A DNA stretch of 64,000 nucleotides from Sphagnum compactum (lineage: Eukaryota), in contig OZ234493.1 in assembly GCA_965153455.1 (NCBI GenBank), forward strand, positions 31,610,213 through 31,674,212, given 5' to 3'. A model generated the notes under the pieces. It did no database searches, had not been told where the DNA came from, and was given only the letters and a program-made list of their open reading frames with translations. Below, piece by piece: positions 40,191-63,889 of the stretch. Every line of letters begins with the position of its first letter. Within the stretch, counting starts at the first letter, position 1. A program made the position numbers and the translations under genes.

Positions 40191-41067
40191 AAGCACAAAA
40201 AAAGACAAAGCCTTGACTTACATAGTTTGAGCATGCAAGCTCAACAACAACACCCCTTGCATTCGCATATGTGCAAGCCCATTGATGCTCCTTCCTCTTT
40301 CAAAGTTCTCCTTGTGAAATCTATTGTTGTAAACCCCAGAAACAAAAGATTAGAAACAGAAAACACAAAGGGATTCAGAAAACAGAGACAAGAAGGTCTA
40401 CAGCAATCTGAGCATCATCATCAACAACAAAAACAACACAAAAATCTCCAAAACCCTAATTTCCTAGAAGACACTTTTCGTCAACAAAATGCAAAGCCCA
40501 AAGAGAATCGAGAAAACATTAGAGTTTGGGTGGGGGGAAAAAAAGGGCAGAGAAGAAGAAGAAGAAGAAGAAGAAGAAGAAGAAGAAGATGCAACGAAGA
40601 ACTGCAAAAGACGAAGAAGCCTCGAACTCACATACCTATGTCTTGAGAGCAAGTTCCACAACAACAACACCCATTGCATTCATTCTCAGAAATGCACATC
40701 CAGACACTTGATGATCGTTTTTTCTTCAACTTCCTTGTGAAATGGATCTAACTGCACATTCCAGAAACAAAACAGGGGGATTCAAAAGAGACAATGTGAC
40801 AAGCAATGTGAGTGAGCATCATCATCCACAACACAAGATTCTCCAGAACCCTAATTTCCGAGAAGACATAATTCCTAGACCAAAAAAAAAAAAAAGTTGC
40901 AAATCCAAAGAGAGTCAAGAAAAAAGGGCAGGGAAGAAGAAGAAGATGATGATGCAAGGATGCTTAATGACTTCCCCCCAACCCTCCCCCCTCTTTGCAA
41001 ATTCCTTGTTGAGAAGGGTTTCTACTGCAAAAATTCCAGAAACAAAATCAGGTCAGGAAAAAACAAA

Positions 41068-41107
<40 letters not shown>

Positions 41108-43941
41108 AGACCCAACAAGATCGTCAACAATGTGAGCATCATCAACAACACAAGAATTTTCTTACTTACTCAAAAAAATTGTAGAAGATGATAAATCATC
41201 CCAGATCTTGCCAACACACAAAAGCTCAGGAAGAAGAAGAAGAAGAAATGAAGAACAAGATCTTCAAGGCACCAAAAATAAAAAGGAAAATTAAAAATAA
41301 AAATCAAACAAACAAACAAACAATGTACTTCATTGAAATAACCAACCCAGCCAAAAAAAAAAAAAAAAGAAAAAAAAACTGCTACTAACTAATAGCCCAA
41401 TTAGGTTAGGGTTATTTAGTGCTTAATTAAAAGGAAACAATTAGCACTAATTAGAGACCAAATAGGATAGGTGTCAATCCAATAGCCTGATTAGATTACC
41501 ACTAGTCTACTAATTTAGTATTGCACTAGGGGTACAATTAGCACTAATTGGGTATAACTGGATATGTGGCAATTAAGTAACTACACTAGGTTAGGCTATT
41601 TTAGTTACTTAATTTTAAGGTACAATTAAGCACTAAGCAGGCACTAATCCATTCATGAACAATTAGCACTAATTACCAAATGTACCAATTATTTTAAGTG
41701 TCAATCAGCAACTTTTATTTGGTAGGATATTAGTAATAATGTAATTATCAATAATTGTCCAAATAGATAAAATGCCCACTCACATAAATAAATTCTAGGT
41801 TAAAAGGTTTTCTAGAGCCTTAATTAGCATTTGGGTACCATGTTTTATATATAAGTCTTAATTAACAAGTCATTACTAATTAGGCCAATTAGTCATTTTA
41901 CTTTGCACTAATTACCAAATAGATAATAATAATTTTTTACTAATCAATGCCATTTCAATTAATTTTATTTTTTTTCTTTTCCTAAAAAACATTTGTGTAG
42001 CAATAATAGTGGACAGATTTCATAAGTCTAGACTAAAGAGTTCATCTATGCAATGATAATTTGCAATTTGTTAGGTAAAATGCATATAGTTGTTTCGATC
42101 TAATATATGTTTTTGTGTTAGTCATTGTTGAATAAATATGAATATTTTGAAAATGTGTAGATTTTATTAAATTATATTAAAATATGATTGTTTTTATTTT
42201 ATTTTATTTTTTGTATATCATAAGTTACAACTTTTTTATATATGTTATGTACATTACACCATATTTACATGTGATAAAAGATTTGTAAAAGTTTGAAACA
42301 TGTTTTGAAACTTTTTAAATTGAGAATTGTTTTGAGAAATGACAATAGTTTATTATCATTTTTACTTTTTATGATAAAATAATTATTAATTTTTAAATTA
42401 TTTTAGTCCTTGAAAATTTGACTAGTTAACACAATTATTATTCAAATTCAAATATATTTTACTAAAAATAAATTTTAGATTCAAATTTAATAATTTTTTT
42501 GAATTTTTTAACATTCATATTCAGAACAACTTTGAATACTTACCATAATTTAAAATATCAAAATATTTATTTATTTATTTATTATATTTTAAATTTTCAG
42601 GGATTTTAAACATTTTTTTGGTTTCTATTAACATGATTTGACCTTATTCAAAAAGTTACTAACATGTTGATATAAAAAATGAACTTGTATTCACCATTTG
42701 GAGATTTTAAGCTTGAGTTGTGAATAAAACAAAGTTAAATAATTAAAATCCCCAACACATGTGAATCTAAACACTTTTGATTGAAGAGTGCAATATGGTG
42801 TTAAAAAGGTGTTTGTAAGAGTTACAACTTTGTATGTAAGAATCTTTTAATTGGAGTTTCTATGCTAGAATTATGGGATCACAATGGTGGTTAGTTTAGT
42901 TTTTTTTATTACTTATTTATTTATAAATGACTTGTTACAAGGTAGGTAGTAAAAATAACCATTACATATCTATGAACCATTTATTAGCTCTACCCATAAG
43001 GAAAAGACCACACATCTATGCAAGATTTGGACTTGGGGATAAAATTTTAGCTCACTCATTAGCCAATGTGGAGATGAAAAGTGTTCACAGAATGAAAATT
43101 TTCACGCGGATGTAATTTTCCATGTTTGGGTGAATGTAACCCTATGTACATTAGGTTTTCAGGTAGTTGATTGAACGTTGTAGGTTTTGATAACCATTGT
43201 AGAAGCTAAAAGTATTTTCTTTTTCAACAAAACTTGTTTTAGCACGAAATAAAACTAAGGTTATCACAAGGAGTCTCAACCTTGCATGGAACGAGAAGGT
43301 GTAGCTATCGCTTTCCAAATCTTTTTCCCCTCCCTCCCCACATGAACATGTTTGGATGTCACGTTACATGTACCTAGTAGTAAGAACTCATGTTTGTCCC
43401 TTGGAATTTCAATAGGCGCATGTTAGGTTTTACCTGTGGGTCACATCTTATGAAACTTGTGAATGGACAAACTTAGGTTTTTTCTTGCAACTCCAACCCT
43501 TGCACGAGAAGGTGAAGGGGGTGTATGTGTATGGAGGTGGTGGTGGTGCATGTGGTGGTTTTGTTGTAGTTTGAGTTTCATTTAACATATCAAACTTTGC
43601 ATGGAAAGTTGGAAATCAATGTGTCTATTGAACATTCAATTTTAACTTTTTCACGATTAAGTTGCTACACTCCTTCTTGGAGAGCAGGAAAAAAGTCTTA
43701 CTTCAGATGCTCTTTTTATGCATGAAAGTACGATTGTGGAATTGTTTACTCAATGAAGAAGCTAGCGGATGTGGAAGATGTAGAACTTCCCCCCAAGGAT
43801 ACGACATTCCCAGCTGCACTAGGGATCTATGTAATGTATGATAAAGAAGGGGACCTTCAATATGTGGGTCTTATGCGTCAAGTTTCCACTAGCCTTGACA
43901 TCCATTTGAAAGAAAATTCTATGCTTTGTGGCTTTGTGAAG

Positions 43942-43996
<55 letters not shown>

Positions 43997-44827
43997 TTGG
44001 TCTTGTCCTTTGAGCTCAACTTTGTGTTTGAGGAGACACTACTACATATTGTGCCCTTTTGCGAAGGGCCAAACAAAAAATCTGAAGGTTTTGCGAAAGA
44101 AAAACAAAAAACCTGAAGGGTTTGCGAAGGAAAAAAAATTTGCCAAATTTGCGATGCGTTCCGCATCGCAACTTGTGGCGCACCATTCATCGCAAATTTA
44201 GAATGAACCTTTAATCATCGCAACACTTTTGCGAGATACACAACAAACAAAACTTTGCGATCCGCTCAGTCTCTGTCCACTGTAGCGAAATTCCACCCTT
44301 CGCAACATTTAATCATACTCAAAACATCGCAACCTTTACAATATACAGAGTATCGCTACAGACTTTGAGATCCACAACACATCGCAACGTGCGATATGTG
44401 GCGCCTCGCAGTTTGCGTTTCAATATGTATTGCAAACCTCGTCACAAATTTTTACAAAACTTTCCGGTGGTGGACGTATCGCAAGGTGCGATGTGAGTTA
44501 GCTCGCAAAGTAGTGAAAGGGTTACTGGAGAAGGAAGTTTCGCGAAAGGGTTTCGCAATGTCATCTGATTCTCAAAACACCATAAAAAAATAAAAAATCT
44601 TTTAGACCAAATGGAAGCTATAAATCCACTTAACCATTATTATAATCTATGTTGCCTTAGTAGATTGAGTGAAAATATCAATAAAGTACGCATAGCAGTG
44701 CTCCTATTCTTGAAAATAAAATTACACAATGGAGTAGAATAGGCAGAAAATGACACAATGAACATTGTGCAGTAATATAGAATCACAAGCCTCAATGGCA
44801 ATTTGCATAAAATCAATGAGTAGTACA

Positions 44828-47800
44828 TTATACGTGGTCATCATCCACCTCAGAGGTTGTAAACACAACCTCTGGTTTCTCACCTAAAATAGAACGGGAC
44901 CGTGGCACATATGTGACAACAAGTGACCACTCCTCTGGGTTTGGGGGATAAGGAAGATAAAAACATTGTTCTACATGACTGGGAAAAGTAAATGGCTCTG
45001 AAGTTTGCCAATGAGATGGCTGATAACTGGTGGCAGATGTCTTTAACCGTGTGTGTCCGCACTCATCCTGAACTACAGTGCAATTTGCACCAGCAAGGTT
45101 CACTTTAAACCACTTGCACTTAAACACATACTCTTCAAACTTTGAATGTGCATCATAAGATACCACCAAGATCTCTTCCAGCTTTCCATAATGTGGCACA
45201 ATATCTCAAACAATATTCCTGTCATGCCGACTACTTCTAGAGTCCTGAATGAATTGCCCTTGAACTCCACAGTCAAAGGTGCGGCCCCTTTTTTCATCCA
45301 AACTGGAAATCCTGAAATTAATATTGTGTTAGGCATTGTGAGTCCTAAACTTATATGATAATAGAAACTTCATGCCCATAAAAATCATCCTAGAACATTC
45401 TAAAAAACTTGTCTGGAATATGAAGATGAATTAATATGCCTAATGAAATAGAAAAAATGAATACCTGAAATGTCTTCCTTGTGTCCACATTGCTGAACGT
45501 GTTGTCACAACTCTCAGTGGTCCATGAACCATGGTGCGAACAGCATCTGTGATCTCTGGAAAACATGCTATACTTTCTCCTTATGCCAACAATTAATCCA
45601 CTTCAACCAACTTCTCTTTCATGTACTTATGAAACGTAGGAAAAATCCTTGATCTCCCACTCATACTTTTGGCATTCTCATAGAAGTTCCTCCACTCTTC
45701 CATGACATTGCTATTATTCAACATGAATGTGGTCAGCTGAATTAACTCTATAGGTAATAACATGCGTGTTTTGATGGCACCAGTCAAACGGTCTTCCTCC
45801 TCTTCTCTTTCCTCCATCCAGACATGAGGACATGATGGATCTATAGTGGCCAAGATGTTGGTGCAATAAAACATGCTCTCTGCTGCCAAGTGTCCTACTG
45901 CCATGCTTCCCTCCACTCGTGCATGGTTACGGACATAACGTTTTAATACTGCCATACATCTTTCAAGCCAATACATCCACCGATAATGCACAGGACCAGC
46001 AATGGCTATCTCATCCACAAGGTGAACTAGTAAATGCACTTGACAATCAAATAATGATGGAGGGAAGGCCTTTTCCAACTTGCATACCACCTCTGCTGCT
46101 ATTACCCTCATTCTTGGAATCTCCTCTACAAATAACTCCTTTGAGCATACCCATCTCAACAGATATCCCAATGACCAAATAGCATCTTGTACTTCTGCAC
46201 TAGCTAAGCCTATTATTGCCACAGGCAATATGTGTTGCAGTAAACGATGATAGTCATGTGTCTTGAGATACCTTGGCCACTTGTGGTCATCGTCCCTACC
46301 AAAAGCTTTTTGAAGATTAGCTCCATAACCTGCAACAAGGTACCATAAAATTATACAAAAGTATTCTAGACATCCAACAGATAACATTCTATACTTCAAA
46401 CTTTTTTTCCAGTATAAGGCATACAGATTTAAATATAAATAAAAGCAATAGAGTACTTTTAAATTCAACCCTTGCCATCAAAGTTCAAACCTGTAGGGAA
46501 TCGCATCTCTCCTATGCGATTTCGAAAGTCTCTTCTTTCTTGTGTAGTAAGTGTCCATGGAGCTGATGGTCGCTGCTCAATACCTGTGTTAGGATCAACA
46601 GTAATCCACACATCGGGATGCCTCTCAAAATCCTCACAGGCCTCCCTAAAGTTACTGTCCTTCTCTCCATAGAGCTGTTTTATGATAGCCTTTCCCACAT
46701 TTCCCTCAATGTGCATGGGGTCCAAGAGATGACGTATTTTCAGCTCACCCCAGTAAGGCAAGCTGTTGAGTATACCCCACCTTGTCAATCCACTACCCTC
46801 AAACACCATAGAATCATTTAGGTCAATAACTCTATTGGCCACATCCCTCCAATATGCAAAAGTGGTAGCTTCTGGAATATCACGCTCATCGCCATAAGGC
46901 ATGTCAAAAGATGAAAATAAAAGTGGGTCTGATTTCATATCATGTCCCAGTGGAAGAAACTTTGTATGGCCAAGGTAAACAATTTTGCGAAGATGGCTTG
47001 AGTATTTAGCCATGTCCTCGAAACTTGGGCCACATGTAGAGCAGGCCTTGTAGCCTTGAGTTTGCAGCCCACTTACAAAACCAAACCCTGATTGTAGAAG
47101 AACGGAATATTAGAACAACAAATAATCACAAAACAGAATAATAAAGAAATATATAGAGGCATGTGCATGATTTCTTACCAGGATAATCATGCATTGTCCA
47201 CATGCAGATTGCCCTCAACTTGAATACACGTGGTATTCCTCCAGTGGTCTTCCTCCCATCATATGCCCATACTCCATCCCACAATGTTTTGAGCTCATCG
47301 ACCACTAGTGCTAAGTAGGTGTCTAGGTTTTTCACCTTACTTGGCCCTGGGATAATAAGAGAAAGCAGCAAAAATCCTTTTTTCATAGACAACCACGGAG
47401 GAAGGTTGTAATTCATGACAACAACTGGCCAAACAGAGGTAGGTCGTCCCTTTCCTCCAAGTGAATGTGGACTAACACCATCTGATGCTAACCCCAACCT
47501 CACATGCCTAGGGTCACGTTCAAGCTCTGGCCATGTTGACTCCACATGCTTGTGAGCAGGAGAGTCAACTGGTAACCTCATAACACTAGGCTCTGATCGA
47601 TGTTCCTTATGCCAAACCATTAACTCGGCCAAGTCTGTACATCGATACATGTGCAGCAAGCGAGGAATAATGGGAAACCACCTTACTGATTTCCTGGGCA
47701 CCTTCTCTGTAAGCATCTGAGGATCATATCGAGCCTCTTCACATGTACTGCACTTCGTTAAATGGGCATTGTTCCCATGAAATAACATGCAGTCATTAAC

Positions 47801-48388
47801 ACATGCATGCACAATTTGATACTCCATGCCTATGGAGGATAAGATCTTTTTAGCCTCCTTCCAAGATCCTGGCAAAACATTTTCCTCAGGTAGCAAGAGG
47901 CTATGACAAAACTGGAAAATGTCTGACAACATAGTATTGCTTGCCTTGTGTTTTGCTTGGATGTTTAACAACCCCAGTATGGCTACTAAACGGCTTAACC
48001 TTGCACCTTGAAAAATAGGTGTTTGAGCATGTGCCTTCGCCTCTTGCCACTACCGTTGTGCCTGGGCAGTATGTTGATGACGTGGATCATCTGCATTGGC
48101 TCCTTCATCATGTGGGTTGCCAGACATATCATCAACTATGTCAAGTCCAAACCAGTCAACCATGAAGTCATCCATTGCTTGTTCTTGGTTTGCAGGCAGT
48201 GGTGCTTCCTGAACTGGTTGAGAGACACCTTCATCATGAGCAGACAAGTCATTTGATGAAGAATGAGTTGATGAAGAGTCTGATTTGTCTGGCATGCCCA
48301 TTTCCCGATATGTTGCTCTCAACCTCCGTGGCAGCATGTCTTCAGAAGGCCGAATATTCTATGCAATACCAAATCCAGAAGATCTTAA
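44828..48388 (-). pseudogene. CACTA TnpD-type transposase (Transposase_21/DUF4218/DUF4216-like) with nonsense mutations. Exons ~48388-47179, 47087-46491, 46329-45465, 45311-44828
   Basis: Motifs HACVNDCMLF, FPIIPRL, PRHVRLGLASDG, YNLPPWL, IIPGP, HDYPG..GYKAC..C, LDPMHIEGNV, LKTHDYH, HLLVHL, WMYWLER, FKCKWF and EPFTFPSHVEQCFY. In-frame stops at 48050, 45593, 45581 and 45206. Confidence 0.92.
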
Positions 48389-48504
48389 CTATATACCAAG
48401 CATAGTTGCATATTACATTATAAATAAAAAATGCCAAAATGCATGTATATAGATATGGTATGTTATGTCTTAAACAAAGTACATAGTTCATAAATGGTGG
48501 AATC

Positions 48505-49305
48505 CTAATTCCACTCATAGTGTGTAAACAACTCATCTCCTGATCTGATCGTCCTAGTAGCTAACACCAGGCAATGGTCTTCATGATAAGTCTCGCCATA
48601 TGGTGCTAGAGGAGGTCCCTCAACAAAAACCCACTCACAATTAGCCCTACGCTTAGGCCGACTCCCCACCGTACTGTTGATGAAACCAACAATGTTTCCA
48701 GAACGTATGGGGTCTCCATCTATCACCCTCACATCACTATGCCTCCTAGTGCTACCAGCAAAGGTGTCCATCTCAAGAGCAAAGGTCTTCCACTCAGGAT
48801 GTTGTCTGAGGATCATGTTCCAATGTCTTCTCTTATAGATAGGCCCACCATAAGGGAACAAAGTAGGACCCTCTCTACGATAACTAGTTGAATCCTCTAC
48901 AATGATGTCCTCACAAGCATATACTCCATAGCCATGCCTCTCTCCAAGTGTAGAGGTCTTAACAATCCATCGTCTACCCCAAACCACAACCTCCTCATCA
49001 TAGGGCAAACTATCAAGCAACCCAAGAACTGCAGGGTTCCATGACTGGATAATATTGGCACATTTGCCAGTGAACTCACACATACCCCATCTGCCCTCAA
49101 CAATAGTCCTAGCATGACCCTCACTTGGACGTTGTGCTTTGGATCGCTGTCTAACGGAGGGCAGACATGGCCTTGCCTCATGATGTGGATTACTGGCCTC
49201 ATGAGAGGCACCAATCCCTACAGCAAATGCATGCGAAAGTGCATTTCCTATGGCAGCTAAAACCCCTTGTGATAGAACATAGGGTGGTGGTGTCATACAG
49301 GAACC
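48505..49305 (-). CDS. SET-domain (lysine methyltransferase fold) exon carried inside the CACTA element, uninterrupted (266 codons)
   Basis: STLGERHGYGVYACEDI (SAM-binding GxG), LFPYGG, IDGDPIRSGNIVGFINS..ANC (NHS-equivalent), LVLATRTIRSGDELFTHY (ELxxxY with terminal Tyr). Acceptor TAG at 49306-49308. Confidence 0.85.
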   Translation of the reverse strand, partial: GSCMTPPPYVLSQGVLAAIGNALSHAFAVGIGASHEASNPHHEARPCLPSVRQRSKAQRPSEGHARTIVEGRWGMCEFTGKCANIIQSWNPAVLGLLDSLPYDEEVVVWGRRWIVKTSTLGERHGYGVYACEDIIVEDSTSYRREGPTLFPYGGPIYKRRHWNMILRQHPEWKTFALEMDTFAGSTRRHSDVRVIDGDPIRSGNIVGFINSTVGSRPKRRANCEWVFVEGPPLAPYGETYHEDHCLVLATRTIRSGDELFTHYEWN

Positions 49306-49421
49306 CTATTACATTCAAAAAACCACAACAAACCATGGAAGTGAAAATAGTTTCAAAGAGGATTTCATGAAAAATAACATGTATCAAAAAGGAAAAATGA
49401 CAATGGTAAAATGACACTTAC

Positions 49422-49652
49422 CACATGAGATGAAGAAGCTCCTGGGGTAAGACCACGATGACGCCCAAATCGCTAAATGTGTTGAGCACAAACATATGAC
49501 TTTTGTGAAATCTGACCAACACACTTGGTGCATTGGCAAAGCTGCCGAGGTGGACCATGAGGAGAATGAGACACCTCTGCTTGCGTATGAGCTGATGTGC
49601 CTTCATTTGAGGAGGATGAGTCACTAGTGGAGACAACGGAGGAGGAAGACAT
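49422..49652 (-). CDS. First coding exon with CxCxxC...H Zn-binding (transposase-associated-like) motif; one premature stop
   Basis: MSSSSVV...LCQCTKCVGQISQKSYVCAQHI*RFGRHRGLTPGASSSHV, followed by a phase-0 GTAAGT donor. TAG at 49473-49475. Confidence 0.65.
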
Positions 49653-50278
49653 ATCATCTGTCACATTCATAAGGCACAAATGTAAGGCAAAGACCAGATA
49701 GGACTTTCAAAAATCATGTGATACAACAATATAAACCATTGACAACTCATAAATTGAGACTACCTAAACCAAAAAGAAATGCATACCTGCATCCAATGTG
49801 GGCTCAACAATGCCTATAGGACTGGTTGCCCGAAACCCTTTGGCATATGCACAACAGGAGCTCTCTGACCTACAACTCTCGAGAAGAAACCCTAAACCTT
49901 AAAACTTTGCGAGCCCCTTGCAAACCCCCTACCATCGCATCCCTTTTCGCATCTGCATACGTTACTTAAACCAAAGCCCTAAAACCTTTAACTTCCTCCT
50001 ACGTTAGCGAAGCCCCCAACTTCGCATCCCTCATCCGTTGCGATACGAACAGCATTGCACGGCCGTTGCGAGCAATACCGTATCGCAGGTTGCGATGCGG
50101 GTTACATCGCAAGCCCTAAATTTTCGAAAGTCCTTAAGCTGGAACAAAATAAGGTGTCTGCCCAAGCTTTCTGGGGGTCTAGACTAGAGTACCACGGCAA
50201 GTGAATTTGAACTCATTCTCGGCATTCCTCGAGAATTGTAGAAGGAAAGCTTGGGCAGACAAGAGGGGGCGGATTGCA

Positions 50279-52052
50279 ATGGCTGGGACTGGTGGAGGGG
50301 GTTCTGGGTCTAGAGGAGGTGACAATAATGAGGAAAGGTTGAGGAAGATGGTTGCTGATCACTTGAGAGCTTCAGAGCTGTTTGCAATCGATACTAGGAC
50401 ACCTAAAGGGCTGGCATCTTTGACAGCCATCTTAGGTCAAGCATTGCAAGCAGGGCTGACTGCTGGGGAAGCACAAAGAGAGGAGGAGGCAAGGAAGGCT
50501 GCAGAAGCCAAGGCAGCAGAGAAGAAGAGAAAGAGAGATGAAAGAGCAACAACAAGAGCTCTCTCACCTAGAACGCTCGAGAAGAAAAGGAGGAAGGATG
50601 AGAGGGATGCCATCAGAAAGGAGAAGCTCGATCTGAAGAAGAGGAAGGAGGAGGAGAGGAAGAAGCTCCCTCTGATAACATTGGCAGAGGAGGGAATTCC
50701 AACCGAGTTAGCATACACTGGGGCCAAGAGCACCATTAGGCACATTGTCTCCACCAACTTTGCACGAGGAGTTGAGTGGGGCACTCTCTCAAAGGCAGAG
50801 CAGAGGAGAGTGATAAATCAGGTCAAGGGAGCATTTCGAAATGGAAGAGAGCTTGATTCACAGTGGATTGCAGACAAGATCTCCAATTCAATGTCTCAAG
50901 CAAGATACCATGACAGGATGAAGATTCGTGCTCACCTGAGAGACCTGAATGTGTACAGGAACTTGGAAAGGCCGCTTCAGTTCTCAGAAGACATCTGGAA
51001 TGCCTTCTACCAGTCTGAGGTGCAGCTGAAAGCAGCAAGGCAGCTGAAGGAGATCACAGAGCAGCTAGCCAAGGCCAAGAAGGCACGAGAGTCTGGGAGG
51101 TCGGACCGTGACCTGAAGGCACTAGAGCTGAAGCTTGCTGAATGCCAATCAGTGGTGGACGAGGTCGGTGATCCACCATTGAAGTTCCTCAAGGCAGCAG
51201 AGCGAGTGAAACTGGTTCCACCCACCACCCACAGGCTAGGGCAAGGTGGCATTCCCGGCCTCAAAGCAGCATTTGTAAGTACACTCCCTACCCTCCATTT
51301 TTTTTCTACAAAGATTCGTTTCTGTCGAGTCACATAGGACTGTTTGGGATACTGTTTAAGATGTGTCAAATGGCGTTTAGTTCGCAAAGTTACGATGCTA
51401 TTTGTTTCGCAAACTACTTCGCAAGATACAGTATGCGAAAGTCTGCGTTTCGCAAAAGAGTTCGTAGACTTGAACAAATCGCAAACTGCTTCGCAAGTTA
51501 AAATATGCGAAGTTCTACGCTTCGCAAATATGCGTTTTTTTTGACCTGTTGTTTTATGGGGACAGTACAAGAGGTACAAGAGGAAGATCACAGCTGCAGA
51601 AATGACAATGGGCCAGGAGCATGGCAAGGAACATCTTTTTGAACATGTTGATGCACTATTGGTGAATGGGTATTGGTTGGGATTGAATTTCTGTTTGTGT
51701 TGAGATTGTTTTCATTTGAATCAAGATTTTCATTGTTGACTAAACTTTGCATGTTGAAATGCAGGCATCTGAGGGTGAGAGTGAGAGCTCTCAGGGCAGC
51801 AGTGATGAGGAGGAGAGAGGCGCTAGCACTGCTCCCCCCAATGTAGCTACCACTAGCAGTGGACCCAATTCATTTGCTAGTCGAAATGCAGGTTTTGCAG
51901 GGGGCGTGGGTAGGGAGGAGGATGAGGACGAGGAGGAGGGGCAGGGGGACGATGAAGAGAGGGAGGAGGATGAGCAGCCTCCCCCTCCACCAGAGAACAC
52001 TAGGAAGAAAGATTCAAGGAAGAAATCCAAGAGGGGAAGGAGGTCTAGATAG
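50279..52052 (+). CDS. CACTA accessory (TnpA/ORF2-like) protein, ~459 aa. Exons 50279-51274, 51566-51661, 51765-52052
   Basis: Basic coiled coil and helical region, THRLGQGG motif resembling the HxLGxGG motif of En/Spm Transposase_24-type ORF2 proteins, and acidic/basic tail. Phase-0 GT-AG junctions with no stops. Confidence 0.7.
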
Positions 52053-54589
52053 ACAGCTAGTGTGTTAGATACCCGAGACTTGCAAACCCTTTTACATTGT
52101 AACTTTTGAAATTTTGATATAGATTTTTTTTTTCCGGCCCAAAGTGACTCCAAATGAATATAAACCCTGCGTACAAAATAAGAATACAGTGCCATGCTTT
52201 TGCGATACACAGTCAATCTCAAAATTATTTGCGAGTCATATTTCTTCGCAACACTACAAAAGCCAAAAGACCAAATATACCATCTCACAAACATCGCTAA
52301 ACTCTGACGGTTAAAATCATTCCAGAACAGGTTTGCGAAATCCTACATTTCGCAAACGTTTAGCGACATTTTGCAAATCGCAAACTCTTTGCGTTAGATA
52401 TTATATCGAAAACCGATAGAGTTTTGAGTCGATTCGCTAAGTTGTAGCGTTGATGAGTTTGTTTCAAAACGTTTCCGATGTTTGTTTTATCGCAAATTCG
52501 TAGCGGCATCGTAAACATCGCAAAACGTTTGCGTTAGACGTTATATCGAAAACCGATAGATTTTTGCGTCTATTCGCTAAGTCGTTGCGATGTTGGGTTT
52601 GTTGCAAATAATTTTCGATGTATTGTGAATCACAAATCATGTATAGAAGACATTATAATCGGAAATGTTTTGCGATTGTTTCAGTTTCGGGAGTTGCGAA
52701 GAGCTTGCGATTGTATGGGTGCGAAGGTGAGGGTTTCGCAAAGGCTTAAGAGTTTGCGAGGAATTGTTGTTCGGAACTGCGGGTTTTCAAAAACTGTTTT
52801 CTTTGTTGTTTGCGATGATATTAGGATCGCAATATGCCCCTCTTTTGTCGTAGTGAGACAAAGAAATGTCTTATTAGTAGTTGGCACTAAAGTTCCAATC
52901 CCTCCAAAAAATGAAGGGGTGCATTTTCATGGATATGTTCATCTTCATCACCATGTTTTGCATCCTCATCTGTGTTCATAGCAAAAGCTACCCATGTTGT
53001 TTTTGAAATGGCATTTATGGTGTGTCGCATGGAAAGGAGAGATACATTTGTGTTTCACAATTTTAATTGTTTGTTAAGGGGAATGATCCATGATAACTTG
53101 GATTGATCATGGTTTTGCACAATAGTTTACTTTTTTTTTGGGCAGATTGTTATACACTTATCTACACCCTATGTCAAGAGCTGATGAAGTTAGTGGGTAG
53201 TCATAGTAGCTAGTGGCTGCTACTATTCGTGACGAAGGTGATAGTCTGACAGTTTGTGAGTTTCATAAGCTTATGACTCCATTAATTGTTCTGTTATTTT
53301 AAAGTGTTGTTTTGAAAAGATTCCTTTGCAATATCATAAATATTTGAACATTTTTATTCCTTCCAATTTTAGGGTTTTGTGAGAGGTTTTGTTAACAAGA
53401 TTATGCATTACAAAATTGTTGTAGGAAGAGGGTTCATGTTGTCCACCTTCCTCAATGCTTTTTACATCTGTTTTTACATCTTCTACTTGTTTATAGCCTT
53501 GATATCTTCTCACCTAAAGTCTATGACCATTGAATTTTCACATTGTCTTTTGCACAATTTGAAATGATTGATGCTCCGGAATGTGCAACCCTTACAGATG
53601 CATGGAAGGCCTAGATGGAGGAGCATATCAACATAACTAGAAAAGTTCCACTAGGGAATGTGAGTGGTAACACCAATTGGACTGCAAAGAAACCAAGACG
53701 AGCAAAGTTTGGCCTCCTTCTCACTCCTGGAACTCATGTGAAGCTCAATGTGCCCATTGGAGACTTAATTGACAAAGTTGTGAAGGACTACAATGTTGTT
53801 GCTTTTATTATAGGCACATGGACAATGCCATAGTGTGGCTTTTCACATAGGGTCTTGACAATATTGAATGATCTTGGTATTGATTATGAAACTCTAAATC
53901 TGTTGGATGAGGACCATAACCCAAATGTCAGGGAGGCCATCAAAAAGTATAGTGAATGACCCACAATCCCACAAGTGAATCCTTTTTGACAAGCAATTTG
54001 GATCTTATTTTGACATATATGAAGTTTCCTAGGAAGAGTGGATATACCTATGAACATTATGTAGAACAAACCTATTGATATTCTGAAATGGTATCCGTTC
54101 ATGAAATGTGGGCTATTTTCAAACATCAAAAGAAACTTTGGGTAATACATGTGGGTTGGCATACAATTGTTTGCAAGATACAAGTGTGGCATGTGAAAGC
54201 AAAGATTAATATTGTCCCACACAACCTTAACCCATAGTGGAATCAAGTTTTTGTGGTTAAAAAGGACAAAGTTCAAGGTAGAACCCTTGAATTGACAATT
54301 TGGGATGTGGTACATGCCTTTCCTTCTCTTGCCTCCCTCTGACAATTCTCCCACCTGACCTAAAGTTTGAAACCTTCAGTAATGCCAATTACTTATGGAT
54401 TTTCTCTCAAAAGGAAAGTTCAATGTAAACATGGGAGGAAGCATGGGAATCCAAGGATGAGAAGCTTTGGGTCCATGACTTATTTGAAAAGCTTACCACA
54501 TGAGATGAAAGTTTTTCTGCAGAAGTAGGGTTTGCATTAAAGTTCTTTTGTTATTGATGTAAAATGCAATTTAAAATTTAAACAATTCA

Positions 54590-62239: not shown

Positions 62240-62530
62240 TGTTATTACAAAAGGCTACCGTAAACCCACAAGTACCACAAAACAGCTACGGCACCCAAGC
62301 TTGATATGCGCTTCTTCTTCTGCCAAGCTGCTGCTGTTGCTTTCTGGAGAGAGAACAAGAAACAGACAGAGAGACAGCCAGACAGAAGAGACGAGGGTTT
62401 CTACTTTAGGGTTTGCGGATTCGAGCTTTCCTCGACACGGCCCCGAATCCAACGCCGACAAGAGTGCGAGAAAGGCACAACAGTGTCGGAAAAAGCGACA
62501 AAAGCCACCAGAAGCTTGTGAGACAGACCC

Positions 62531-62561
<31 letters not shown>

Positions 62562-63889
62562 CCTCCCTAGGGCTTAGAGTTTAGGGTCTGTGTCTCTGTG
62601 TCTCTTCTTGAGCACCTTCTTCATGTGATGAACTTAAGATCTTATTGCAAATAAATTGCATTCTCGAATAATCTAAGTTCTATTTTGGGATGAAACACCT
62701 AAGTTTCTGTACCAAGTTTCTCATAATGAAAGGTGAGGCAATTGTCAGGTCCCTTGACACCAGCAGCCAGAAGAATTGTTGATCACTGAAAAAATAATTC
62801 AGTTTTGTAAGCTTCTGCTAGACAGGAACAAACAATCAATCAGACAATGAAATCCAAAGCCCAGAACCAAAGACTTCAGATTTCAGCAAGAACACAATTT
62901 AGGGTTGTCAGAAAAGGAAACATTTATATTACAAGTAGAAGTCTTCTCCACACTGCTTGAGAACCCTTTGCTGGTAATGGGATTCTTAACCTTGCAACAG
63001 GAAACCCACTGGTTGTCTCTGTAAACAATTCCGAAAGGCAGACAAGCTGCCAAATAAGATACAAACTAAAACTAAAACCAGTGTCTGCGTGGTACACTAC
63101 TGTTACAGAATCTCAAGAGCAACTTGTGAAGCTGTCATCACTCGAGAGCCCCTGGGAATAGCTGATGTAACTTTCCACCACAGTTACAAAAAAAAAGCGC
63201 ACCCCAAAACCCATAACAGCCCATGAACAATTTCTGTTCCTCTGGGACCAATGGTAGAATTTGAAGCTTGTTGAGCCAAAACGAATCCTCTGTTGCACTT
63301 CAACAATGTAAAGGGTGGTGCTAGAAAATGGAGTCAGGAATGTTCATACTCTCTGCAAAGCATTTGAAACAGAATTTGTTCAAAGCTGATTACTAAAGAC
63401 CCACAGCAGCAGCCACATGAGAAGTTTTAACACAAGATGCTGAAAACATCCAGGGTTTGTAGCTAAGATCTCTTTGACTGAGGATTGCCAAAAATGTCAT
63501 CATGTGGATATAATGATATAGCCGTAGCATATTGGCAGACAGGCAATCCCAAATAGAAGCCCATATAAACCTGTGCCTTCTTTGATTACAAAAGCCTTTC
63601 TTGACCTTAAATTTCATGCCTGCAGAAAAGCTGTGCTCAGTTCTCCATACAAATTCAGGCAAGCATCAAATGACCTGCTTGCCTGTACTAATTCCTTGCC
63701 CTAGAATGAATCCTTCACACTGACTACAGAAACCATAGGGGAGGAAAGATAGGTAGGTGGCAGCATTCTTTTCGTGACAAGAGGTCGGTCAGTCAGTAAG
63801 TTGGTCTCATGCCTCTAACCTAGGTGGAAGGTGTCCCAGGGAGTTGATGAGCTCCATATCCATCAATACATATGAACAAAGTGGATATT

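Follow-up and report, generated by a model that had tools for sequence, protein, structure and literature searches.

We analyzed a window of 64,000 nucleotides of Sphagnum compactum DNA (contig OZ234493.1, assembly GCA_965153455.1) that contains a CACTA (En/Spm-type) transposon. Within the first intron of its transposase (TnpD) gene lies the whole of a second gene, which encodes a SET-domain protein. An earlier note on this DNA, made from the sequence alone, had proposed that a single zinc-motif exon is spliced in frame either to the SET exon or to the transposase. The element and its transposase gene, with positions counted in the window and exons given in the order of transcription, are made up as follows.

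44037..52855, minus strand: whole CACTA (En/Spm-type) element, 8,819 bp, with termini CACTAC...GTAGTG and flanked by AGA
49787..49829, minus strand: 3' part of the non-coding 5' untranslated region (5'UTR) exon, with donor CAG/GTATGC (last base 49787), from RNA joints
49422..49657, minus strand: coding exon 1, 236 nt, with ATG at 49652-49650, 77 codons and a CxCxxC...H...G(R)H zinc motif
48359..49421, minus strand: intron 1 of the transposase gene, 1,063 nt, GT..AG, holding the whole SET gene, from an RNA joint
49306..49421, minus strand: U-rich segment from the exon 1 donor to the SET open reading frame (ORF), 116 nt, U 0.50, AU 0.72, a proximal intron or a SET leader
48505..49305, minus strand: SET-domain ORF, 266 codons from the acceptor and 263 from its own ATG at 49296, stop at 48507-48505, intact here
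48359..48504, minus strand: AU-rich segment from the SET stop to the transposase acceptor, 146 nt, AU 0.72, a candidate 3'UTR or polyadenylation region
47179..48358, minus strand: transposase exon 2, with an acidic N-terminal region, the start of Transposase_21 and an in-frame TAG at 48049-48047
47087-46491, 46329-45465 and 45311-44828, minus strand: transposase exons 3-5, with Transposase_21, DUF4218 and DUF4216 and three further in-frame stops

Splicing was read from X19, a stranded polyA RNA-seq set carrying the same species label (tissue unknown), of which about 12% of the reads were used. The X19 reads and the contigs of three metatranscriptomes were aligned to positions 44000-50400 at a likeness of at least 90%, and a joint was listed when supported by 3 reads at 2 places. 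The 1,048 X19 reads that aligned comprise 111 that are at least 99% alike, 810 at 95-99% and 127 at 90-95%. Because 810 of the 1,048 are only 95-99% alike, most of these reads come from sister copies of the element. The first mate is on the plus strand in nearly all of them, consistent with transcription of the minus-strand gene. The contigs X1, X2 and X4 have flat depth over introns and flanks and are spliced only in the 5'UTR; they may be DNA and were not used as evidence of expression.

The zinc-motif exon is joined to transposase exon 2 in this RNA. The joint 48358/49422 skips 1,063 nt with GT..AG ends and is found in 17+1 reads with 15 start places; 7 short loose ends at 48359 were found besides. 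Downstream, the joints 47086/47178 (91 nt skipped, 20+1 reads), 46326/46488 (161 nt, 29 reads) and 45310/45464 (153 nt, 22+1 reads) connect the remaining exons. Also listed were a 163-nt skip with non-canonical GG..TG ends at 45304/45468 (3 reads) and a step back upstream of exon 1 at 50373/50307 (4 reads). The spliced frame is one ORF of about 1,125 codons, from ATG 49652 to the stop at 44830-44828, in which this copy has five stops. It runs through the Pfam domains Transposase_21 (PF02992; 48049-47126, E 5.9e-39, and also 47109-46465), DUF4218 (PF13960; 46477-45593, E 7e-33) and DUF4216 (PF13952; 45205-44828, E 1.6e-7). The earlier note had predicted a junction from 49422 to 48358, and the 18 reads and 7 partial ones in polyA RNA-seq, with the joined frame open through all three domains, bear it out. 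Its alternative transposase acceptor at 48388 proved unusable: in phase 0 the frame reaches the TAG at 48361-48359 after 9 codons, and no RNA joint is listed there.

Other copies of the element were taken from 80 metagenome loci, all from metagenome contigs, which are DNA copies 90-98% identical to the window. The 1,063-nt segment is retained in 11 of 11 DNA copies that cover both splice sites, one of them with an 83-nt deletion, so the 48358/49422 joint is a product of splicing and not a deleted DNA form. Spliced cDNA was sought among the 80 loci and none was found; all are collinear with DNA, transposase intron included, and because they are DNA they are uninformative on splicing. Coding of the transposase begins in the zinc-motif exon, which encodes the N-terminus of TnpD.

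The zinc motif in exon 1 reads LCQCTKCVGQISQKSYVCAQHI, and the minus-strand translation of 49652-49422 is MSSSSVV...GPPRQLCQCTKCVGQISQKSYVCAQHI*RFGRHRGLTPGASSSHV, with the in-frame TAG of this copy at 49475-49473. The exon closes with the codon GTG, whose last base is 49422; the donor GTAAGT (49421-49416) follows in phase 0. By RNA-seq exon 1 starts at 49657, downstream of the 5'UTR exon that ends at 49787; a copy-specific break lies at 49829. Joints of the 5'UTR intron connect 49787 to 49657, 49652, 49623 and 49541, with 2 to 6 reads each in X19, and occur in the X1 and X2 contigs as well. The acceptors at 49623 and 49541 eliminate ATG 49652, and the joint at 49652 brings three extra letters. 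Two bases are missing at 49651 in 3 of 22 reads, which would put ATG 49657 in frame with the zinc ORF. A second frame through exon 1 (49660-49418, minus strand, 80 codons, from the first ATG of the exon at 49657) is probably due to chance and was treated as such.

Exon 1 encodes the zinc-motif core of the transposase-associated domain, in keeping with the N-terminal Cys/His domain that the earlier note had ascribed to TnpD. In hhalign the motif aligned with nine angiosperm TnpD N-termini (85.8%, P 5.4e-6, 31 columns) over a core CPCxxC...HL...G. The Pfam model Transpos_assoc (PF13963), carried by 13 of 23 long TnpD matches, scored 13.6 bits on the window exon, 14.9 on P0130 and 17.3 on P0050, all under its gathering threshold of 27.7. 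In P0050 the motif lies directly on TnpD in a single 1,135-aa ORF, found in contigs of 3.9-4.6 kb.

The splice sites named in the earlier note, a phase-0 GTAAGT donor at 49422 and acceptors at 49305, 48388 and 48358, are all present on the minus strand as described. The SET acceptor is TAG/GGT TCC TGT ATG, with its first exon base at 49305 and GGTTCCTGTATG as the letters after TAG; the other two phase-0 AG acceptors are TAG/TTA AGA at 48388 and TAG/AAT ATT at 48358. The AGs at 49305 and 48358 each belong to an in-frame TAG that bounds the ORF upstream, and phase 0 at these two sites is therefore automatic. Because ORFs are delimited in this way, phase compatibility alone is weak evidence, with a chance of about 1 in 3 per site. 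Conservation of the acceptors across copies had been suggested as a check. The counts are high (donor GTAAGT in 48 of 52 copies, AG at the SET acceptor in 38 of 43, at 48388 in 22 of 24 and at 48358 in 23 of 24) but uninformative, as the copies diverge by only 2-7%.

A junction from the zinc exon to SET, 49422 to 49305, was not found in X19 at the 3-read threshold. A skip of 116 nt would have shown, because the 91-nt skip is listed. The 116-nt segment is instead covered by unspliced reads, with a depth of 8 at 49392 and 7 at 49408, so some SET RNA is unspliced from exon 1. Sense polyA RNA covers SET to about half the level of the exons: depth is 13.1-16.1 in the four SET bins, 28.7 in the bin with most of exon 1 and 21-30 in the exon 2 bins. 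Were the SET reads from spliced Zn-SET mRNA, their depth of about 15 should bring roughly 10 reads at 49422 to 49305; 49422 to 48358 has 18. Past the SET stop, in 48359-48493, depth is about 4, an estimate made by subtracting the share of exon 2 from the bin 48280-48493; on this binned-depth estimate the SET RNA seems to end before the transposase acceptor. Base composition fits a three-part intron, with SET exon-like and its two AU-rich flanks intron-like: the AU fraction is 0.67-0.73 in the four verified introns, 0.53 in the SET ORF and 0.52-0.55 in the exons. The earlier note had one promoter yield both zinc-SET (Zn-SET) and zinc-TnpD (Zn-TnpD) isoforms. The Zn-TnpD half stands on 18 reads; the Zn-SET half did not emerge from this RNA, with fewer than 3 junction reads and unspliced reads at a depth of 7-8. 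In Sphagnum a Zn-SET protein made through the shared exon would be at most a minor or conditional isoform.

The SET ORF is 95% identical to the protein P0001. It passes the Pfam SET gathering threshold of 22.4 marginally, at 22.8 bits (P0001, 22.9). When eight SET-core relatives were scanned, P0161 passed (24.1), P0015, P0108, P0116 and P0120 scored 19.0-21.7, under the cut-off, and P0040, P0122 and P0130 had no Pfam SET match. In the AlphaFold model of P0001, pLDDT averages 57.7 over the whole chain; across 141-340, blocks of 10 residues have means of 49-91 (most of them 66-91), and the zinc part scores low. With Foldseek the best E was 3.8e-5, to the SET domains of MLL1 and MLL3, and there were 93 PDB matches at E<=0.001 with 17-20% identity. 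The structural matches of the SET core include MLL1, MLL3, LegAS4, G9a, SET8 and EZH2. A sequence search of P0001 against solved structures gave chance haemoglobin matches only (E 0.6). By its model and structural matches the ORF has a SET fold. Across 15 relatives G202, G204 and N287 do not vary, and at least 90% keep E335, L336 and Y340. GxG, NHxC and ELxxxY, with its catalytic Tyr, are presumably the cofactor-binding and catalytic motifs of SET methyltransferases. A post-SET Cys cluster is absent, and Y340 is followed by just 3 residues. Methyltransferase activity is plausible for this protein from its sequence.

To place the SET protein among others, we searched with the ORF, which gave 49 clusters, and with a profile of 15 diverse members, which matched 135 clusters (50% identity) among 1.84 billion proteins; 53 of the 135 had E<=1e-30. 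At E<=0.001 the profile found no ordinary cellular SET protein. By these comparisons this SET family is small and distinct from ordinary SET proteins. Those named members that were looked up come from Sphagnum species and from the liverworts Calypogeia fissa and Riccia sorocarpa. Near-identical predicted SET proteins are on record in large number, with clusters of 360 and 112. Models of about 343 aa that combine the zinc exon and SET exist for S. jensenii, S. troendelagicum, S. balticum, S. fallax and S. compactum, and S. tenellum has a 242-aa model with the zinc exon. The zinc motif and SET are likewise joined in Calypogeia (P0015, P0040, P0210) and Riccia (P0108, P0120, P0122, P0130). All these are models from genome annotation; the one joined form from another source is P0116, which comes from a contig.

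Six Riccia sorocarpa models place SET N-terminal to TnpD (P0051, P0169, P0173, P0151, P0185, P0186). One of them, P0173, has the zinc motif in front of SET-TnpD, and no second zinc motif was found between SET and TnpD in any of the six. Compared with Riccia, SET is 35-43% and TnpD 44-48% identical; compared with Calypogeia, SET is 64% and the zinc exon 64-78% identical. Because the order zinc exon, SET, TnpD recurs across lineages at these identities, it is old and has been retained. The earlier note had suggested that SET is an integrated component of the element, and this suggestion is upheld by the six Riccia models and by the zinc motif with SET in Calypogeia, Riccia and P0116. On the evidence of gene order and protein identity, SET is shown as an integral, long-standing accessory gene of a CACTA lineage in mosses and liverworts and not as a recent passenger. 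The Calypogeia copies (P0015, P0040, P0210) are much closer to those of Sphagnum than the Riccia copies are, which could reflect horizontal transfer between bryophytes or uneven rates.

Contig-derived SET ORFs with their own Met shortly before the conserved AIGxA and without the zinc motif are numerous (P0013, P0039, P0042, P0106, P0110, P0113, P0117, P0135). They speak for a start codon belonging to SET itself but do not settle how SET is expressed, because unspliced DNA would look alike.

The host is a CACTA (En/Spm-type) transposon of Sphagnum. It has the features by which CACTA elements are recognized, namely CACTA termini with a 3-bp target-site duplication, a TnpD-type transposase and subterminal repeat arrays. 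Its termini read CACTACTACA at 44037 and, in the inverse, ...GTCGTAGTG ending at 52855, and the duplication AGA was read in the sequence at 44034-44036 and 52856-52858. Similarity of other copies breaks off at 44037 and 52856 (L024, L055), and contigs have loose ends at 44038. Protein matches place the element in Sphagnum, with an S. jensenii entry 95% identical. The window has 46 occurrences of the hexamer TCGCAA/TTGCGA, 44 of them within the element. Two further kinds of feature lie in the element.

44059-44558 and 52200-52832 (subterminal), 49907-50112 and 51382-51527 (internal): TCGCAA/TTGCGA arrays, from the hexamer count
50183..51337, plus strand: ORF-X, a Lys/Glu-rich stop-to-stop frame of 384 codons, inside the element and divergent from exon 1, with 49830-50200 in between

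The repeat cluster at 49907-50112, with ORF-X on one side and the 5'UTR exon on the other, falls within the promoter region of the transcript that carries the zinc exon, and 44149-44195 pairs with 50066-50112 as an inverted repeat. Other copies keep ORF-X at 88-92%. Pfam gave no match for it, and an Atlas look-up gave a best score of 0.88 with low recognition and no usable lead. It could encode the element's DNA-binding (TnpA-like) protein, expressed from a bidirectional promoter. RNA of both strands was seen at 50206-50400. An Rfam scan of 43500-53500 gave no match. Long (GA)n/(CT)n tracts lie at 41055-41118, 43926-44009 and 62520-62584, one of them adjoining the 44037 end of the element.

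Most copies of the family are decayed. With the window included, 24 of 49 copies have an open zinc exon, 5 of 17 an open SET ORF and 3 of 19 an open first part of exon 2. Where this copy has TAG in exon 1, 49 of 54 other copies have a Gln codon and 5 have TAG; at the exon 2 stop at 48049, 17 of 20 have Gln. About 22-25% of changes from the majority base are synonymous in the zinc exon, SET and exon 2 regions alike; the test, which set synonymous against non-synonymous and private against shared changes, looks neutral in all three and indicates only decay after insertion. The RNA reads differ from the window at 272 places, with C>T at 93 and G>A at 66, and both stops checked in this copy derive from CAG. 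This excess of C>T and G>A is consistent with silenced copies whose methylated cytosines have been deaminated. The copy in the window is dead, with stops derived by C-to-T change. Internally deleted or truncated copies were also seen (L024, L055, L023, L034-L036, L039, L043), several of which end inside SET; in L024 a deletion joins 46649 to 44101, L055 is without the ORF-X region and L023 has an 83-nt deletion in SET.

How the nested SET gene is expressed can be read in several ways. We favor a stand-alone SET protein, to which we give about an even chance (roughly 0.5). Transcription runs from one promoter region through the 5'UTR exon and the 236-nt zinc exon, and a phase-0 splice over the 1,063-nt intron to 48358, with three more introns, yields a zinc-motif TnpD of about 1,125 aa. 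The complete SET gene lies in sense within intron 1, and its RNA in Sphagnum would be mostly collinear with DNA, either reading through from exon 1 or beginning near the 116-nt segment. The likely end of that RNA is in the 146-nt AU-rich segment ahead of the transposase acceptor, and translation from the SET ATG at 49296 would give a protein of 263 aa, probably a lysine methyltransferase acting on chromatin. A number of observations weigh against this. Eleven ATGs precede the SET ATG in unspliced exon-1 RNA, so stand-alone translation would need an internal start site near the 116-nt segment. That segment would make a convincing plant intron, with its GTAAGT donor, U fraction of 0.50 and AG acceptor. 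Genome-annotation models in six Sphagnum species, Calypogeia and Riccia have the zinc exon joined to SET. P0116, on a 2,141-nt Logan contig, has the zinc motif and SET in a single 423-aa ORF with no Met between them, so that in at least this distant lineage the fusion seems to be the encoded form. In the protein itself, the usual His of the NH motif is replaced, with Ser after N287 (Asn in P0001). The RNA evidence comes from one polyA-selected set of unknown tissue; about 12% of it was read, and sister copies gave most of the reads. The SET polyadenylation site is placed from binned depth. A Zn-SET mRNA that read on into the transposase exons would probably undergo nonsense-mediated decay, and may be under-represented.

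Several of the same observations speak for a shared 5' zinc exon with alternative acceptors, which would give Zn-SET through 49305 with intronic polyadenylation or Zn-TnpD through 48358. Zn-SET would then be the form in which SET functions in Sphagnum, made in tissues or conditions that were not sampled, and its zinc module would bring SET to the element. We regard this as possible, though on the unlikely side. The donor is in phase with the 49305 acceptor, the 116-nt segment is intron-like in composition, and with 11 ATGs upstream, exon-1 RNA is unlikely to support stand-alone translation. The architecture is also found in models of five Sphagnum species, with a zinc-exon model in S. tenellum, and in those of Calypogeia and Riccia, and the contiguous Zn-SET ORF of P0116 is 31% identical to P0001 over residues 36-342 (E 7e-49). 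However, fewer than 3 reads support 49422 to 49305, where about 10 are predicted and 18 are seen for 49422 to 48358, and unspliced reads lie inside the 116-nt segment. The Sphagnum Zn-SET models are annotations, and a gene predictor would choose the 116-nt intron anyway. Of eight clusters with the zinc exon (188-601 aa), none is from a transcript-like contig, and SET has its own Met near its start in many lineages. A bolder form of the shared-exon idea, which we consider doubtful, extends it to a bryophyte-wide CACTA lineage in which the zinc exon is an interchangeable N-terminal module. The distal splice would give the transposase, and the proximal splice with intronic polyadenylation a Zn-SET methyltransferase delivered to the element's own TCGCAA arrays, including the promoter cluster. 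There it might write a histone mark on its own copies, resisting host silencing or throttling itself.

It is also conceivable, if improbable, that the SET RNA is retained-intron or read-through noise from hundreds of decayed copies, with no SET protein made in present-day Sphagnum and the gene a relic. Most copies are dead (5 of 17 retain an intact SET, 24 of 49 an intact zinc exon and 3 of 19 an intact N-terminal part of TnpD exon 2), variation in the three regions looks neutral with about 22-25% synonymous changes, and C>T and G>A changes predominate, as would be expected of such a relic. Yet the SET depth of 13-16, about half that of the exons, is far above what an ordinary spliced-out intron would be expected to leave in polyA RNA, and its fall to an estimated 4 or so past the SET stop suggests a discrete RNA. 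Intact SET ORFs exist, hundreds of near-identical predicted proteins are on record, and the junction-spliced TnpD mRNA shows that transcription and processing of the family continue. Flowering-plant CACTA elements often capture fragments of host genes, and SET could be such a passenger, captured recently into the transposase intron and without a role for the element. The exon-like composition of the SET ORF, unlike that of its flanks, would agree with capture. We find this very improbable, as the gene order is repeated in three bryophyte lineages at 35-64% protein identity, with TnpD diverging in step (44-48%). Moreover, the profile search returned 135 clusters only, with no ordinary cellular SET proteins at E<=0.001; no host paralogue was seen outside element copies, and the ORF is complete and no fragment.

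In maize, a single En/Spm transcription unit is alternatively spliced to give both TnpA and TnpD, and the TnpD ORFs lie in the first intron of tnpA. The Sphagnum element resembles it in its CACTA termini, 3-bp target duplication, short subterminal repeats and Transposase_21-type TnpD. The two are also alike in placing the coding sequence of one product within a large 5' intron of the other's mRNA behind a shared 5' exon, of which only the transposase splice was seen here. In contrast to En/Spm, the nested gene in Sphagnum is SET and not the transposase, there is an extra ORF-X on the opposite strand, and no TnpA homologue was identified. Of the two products of an En/Spm-style unit, the exon was found joined to the transposase and, at the 3-read threshold, not joined to SET, in one polyA set. 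The zinc exon is like the PF13963 domain of flowering plants in its N-terminal position on TnpD, seen here by RNA-seq, and in its CxCxxC...H...G core. It differs in consisting of the core only, without about 30 preceding model residues, and in forming its own exon upstream of an inserted gene.

SET genes have been described in other DNA transposons. HarbingerS and oomycete MuDR families carry them (PMC12730594, citing Repbase Reports 2014) and, as described there, are like the moss element in having a SET lysine methyltransferase gene beside the transposase, presumably acting on chromatin. They belong to another superfamily (PIF/Harbinger, MuDR) and to other hosts, and the likeness is one of description and not of sequence comparison; the parts of these descriptions consulted make no mention of nesting in a transposase intron or of a shared zinc exon. 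Closer by superfamily are the Plavaka elements (EnSpm/CACTA) of the red alga Bostrychia moritziana, whose accessory gene PAG2 is reported to encode SET (PF00856) and a DNA methylase (bioRxiv 10.1101/2025.02.11.637652). Like the Sphagnum element, these are EnSpm-superfamily elements with a conserved SET accessory gene. Unlike it, they are giants of 17-19 kb in a red alga and PAG2 adds the DNA methylase domain; this comparison too is by description, and the passages of that source consulted are silent on nesting in the transposase intron and on an exon shared with the transposase. The same preprint mentions capture of SET by Helitrons. The VANDAL (MuDR) protein VANC is an anti-silencing protein that causes sequence-specific loss of DNA methylation (PMC12730594; bioRxiv 10.1101/2025.02.11.637652). 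By concept alone, VANC, as these sources present it, might be a parallel as an accessory protein of a plant DNA transposon that alters the epigenetic state of its own family; VANC is no SET protein, and the moss SET is known from sequence. A literature search found no paper describing a SET gene in bryophyte CACTA elements, with Repbase Reports and subscription journals outside its coverage.

CACTA elements are given as the commonest of the classified repeats in Sphagnum genomes (6.8%), and the Sphagnum gene models as built from RNA-seq evidence and ab initio prediction (PMC9946827). Hundreds of entries named SET domain-containing protein in Sphagnum proteomes are transposon genes, which calls for caution by annotators. 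The first intron predicted in the Sphagnum SET models differs from the intron used in the RNA sampled. The documented transposase splice gives a direct experimental handle on whether SET receives the zinc module. If SET has been in the transposase intron since before the moss and liverwort copies split, this would be a land-plant transposon that brings its own chromatin-modifying enzyme.

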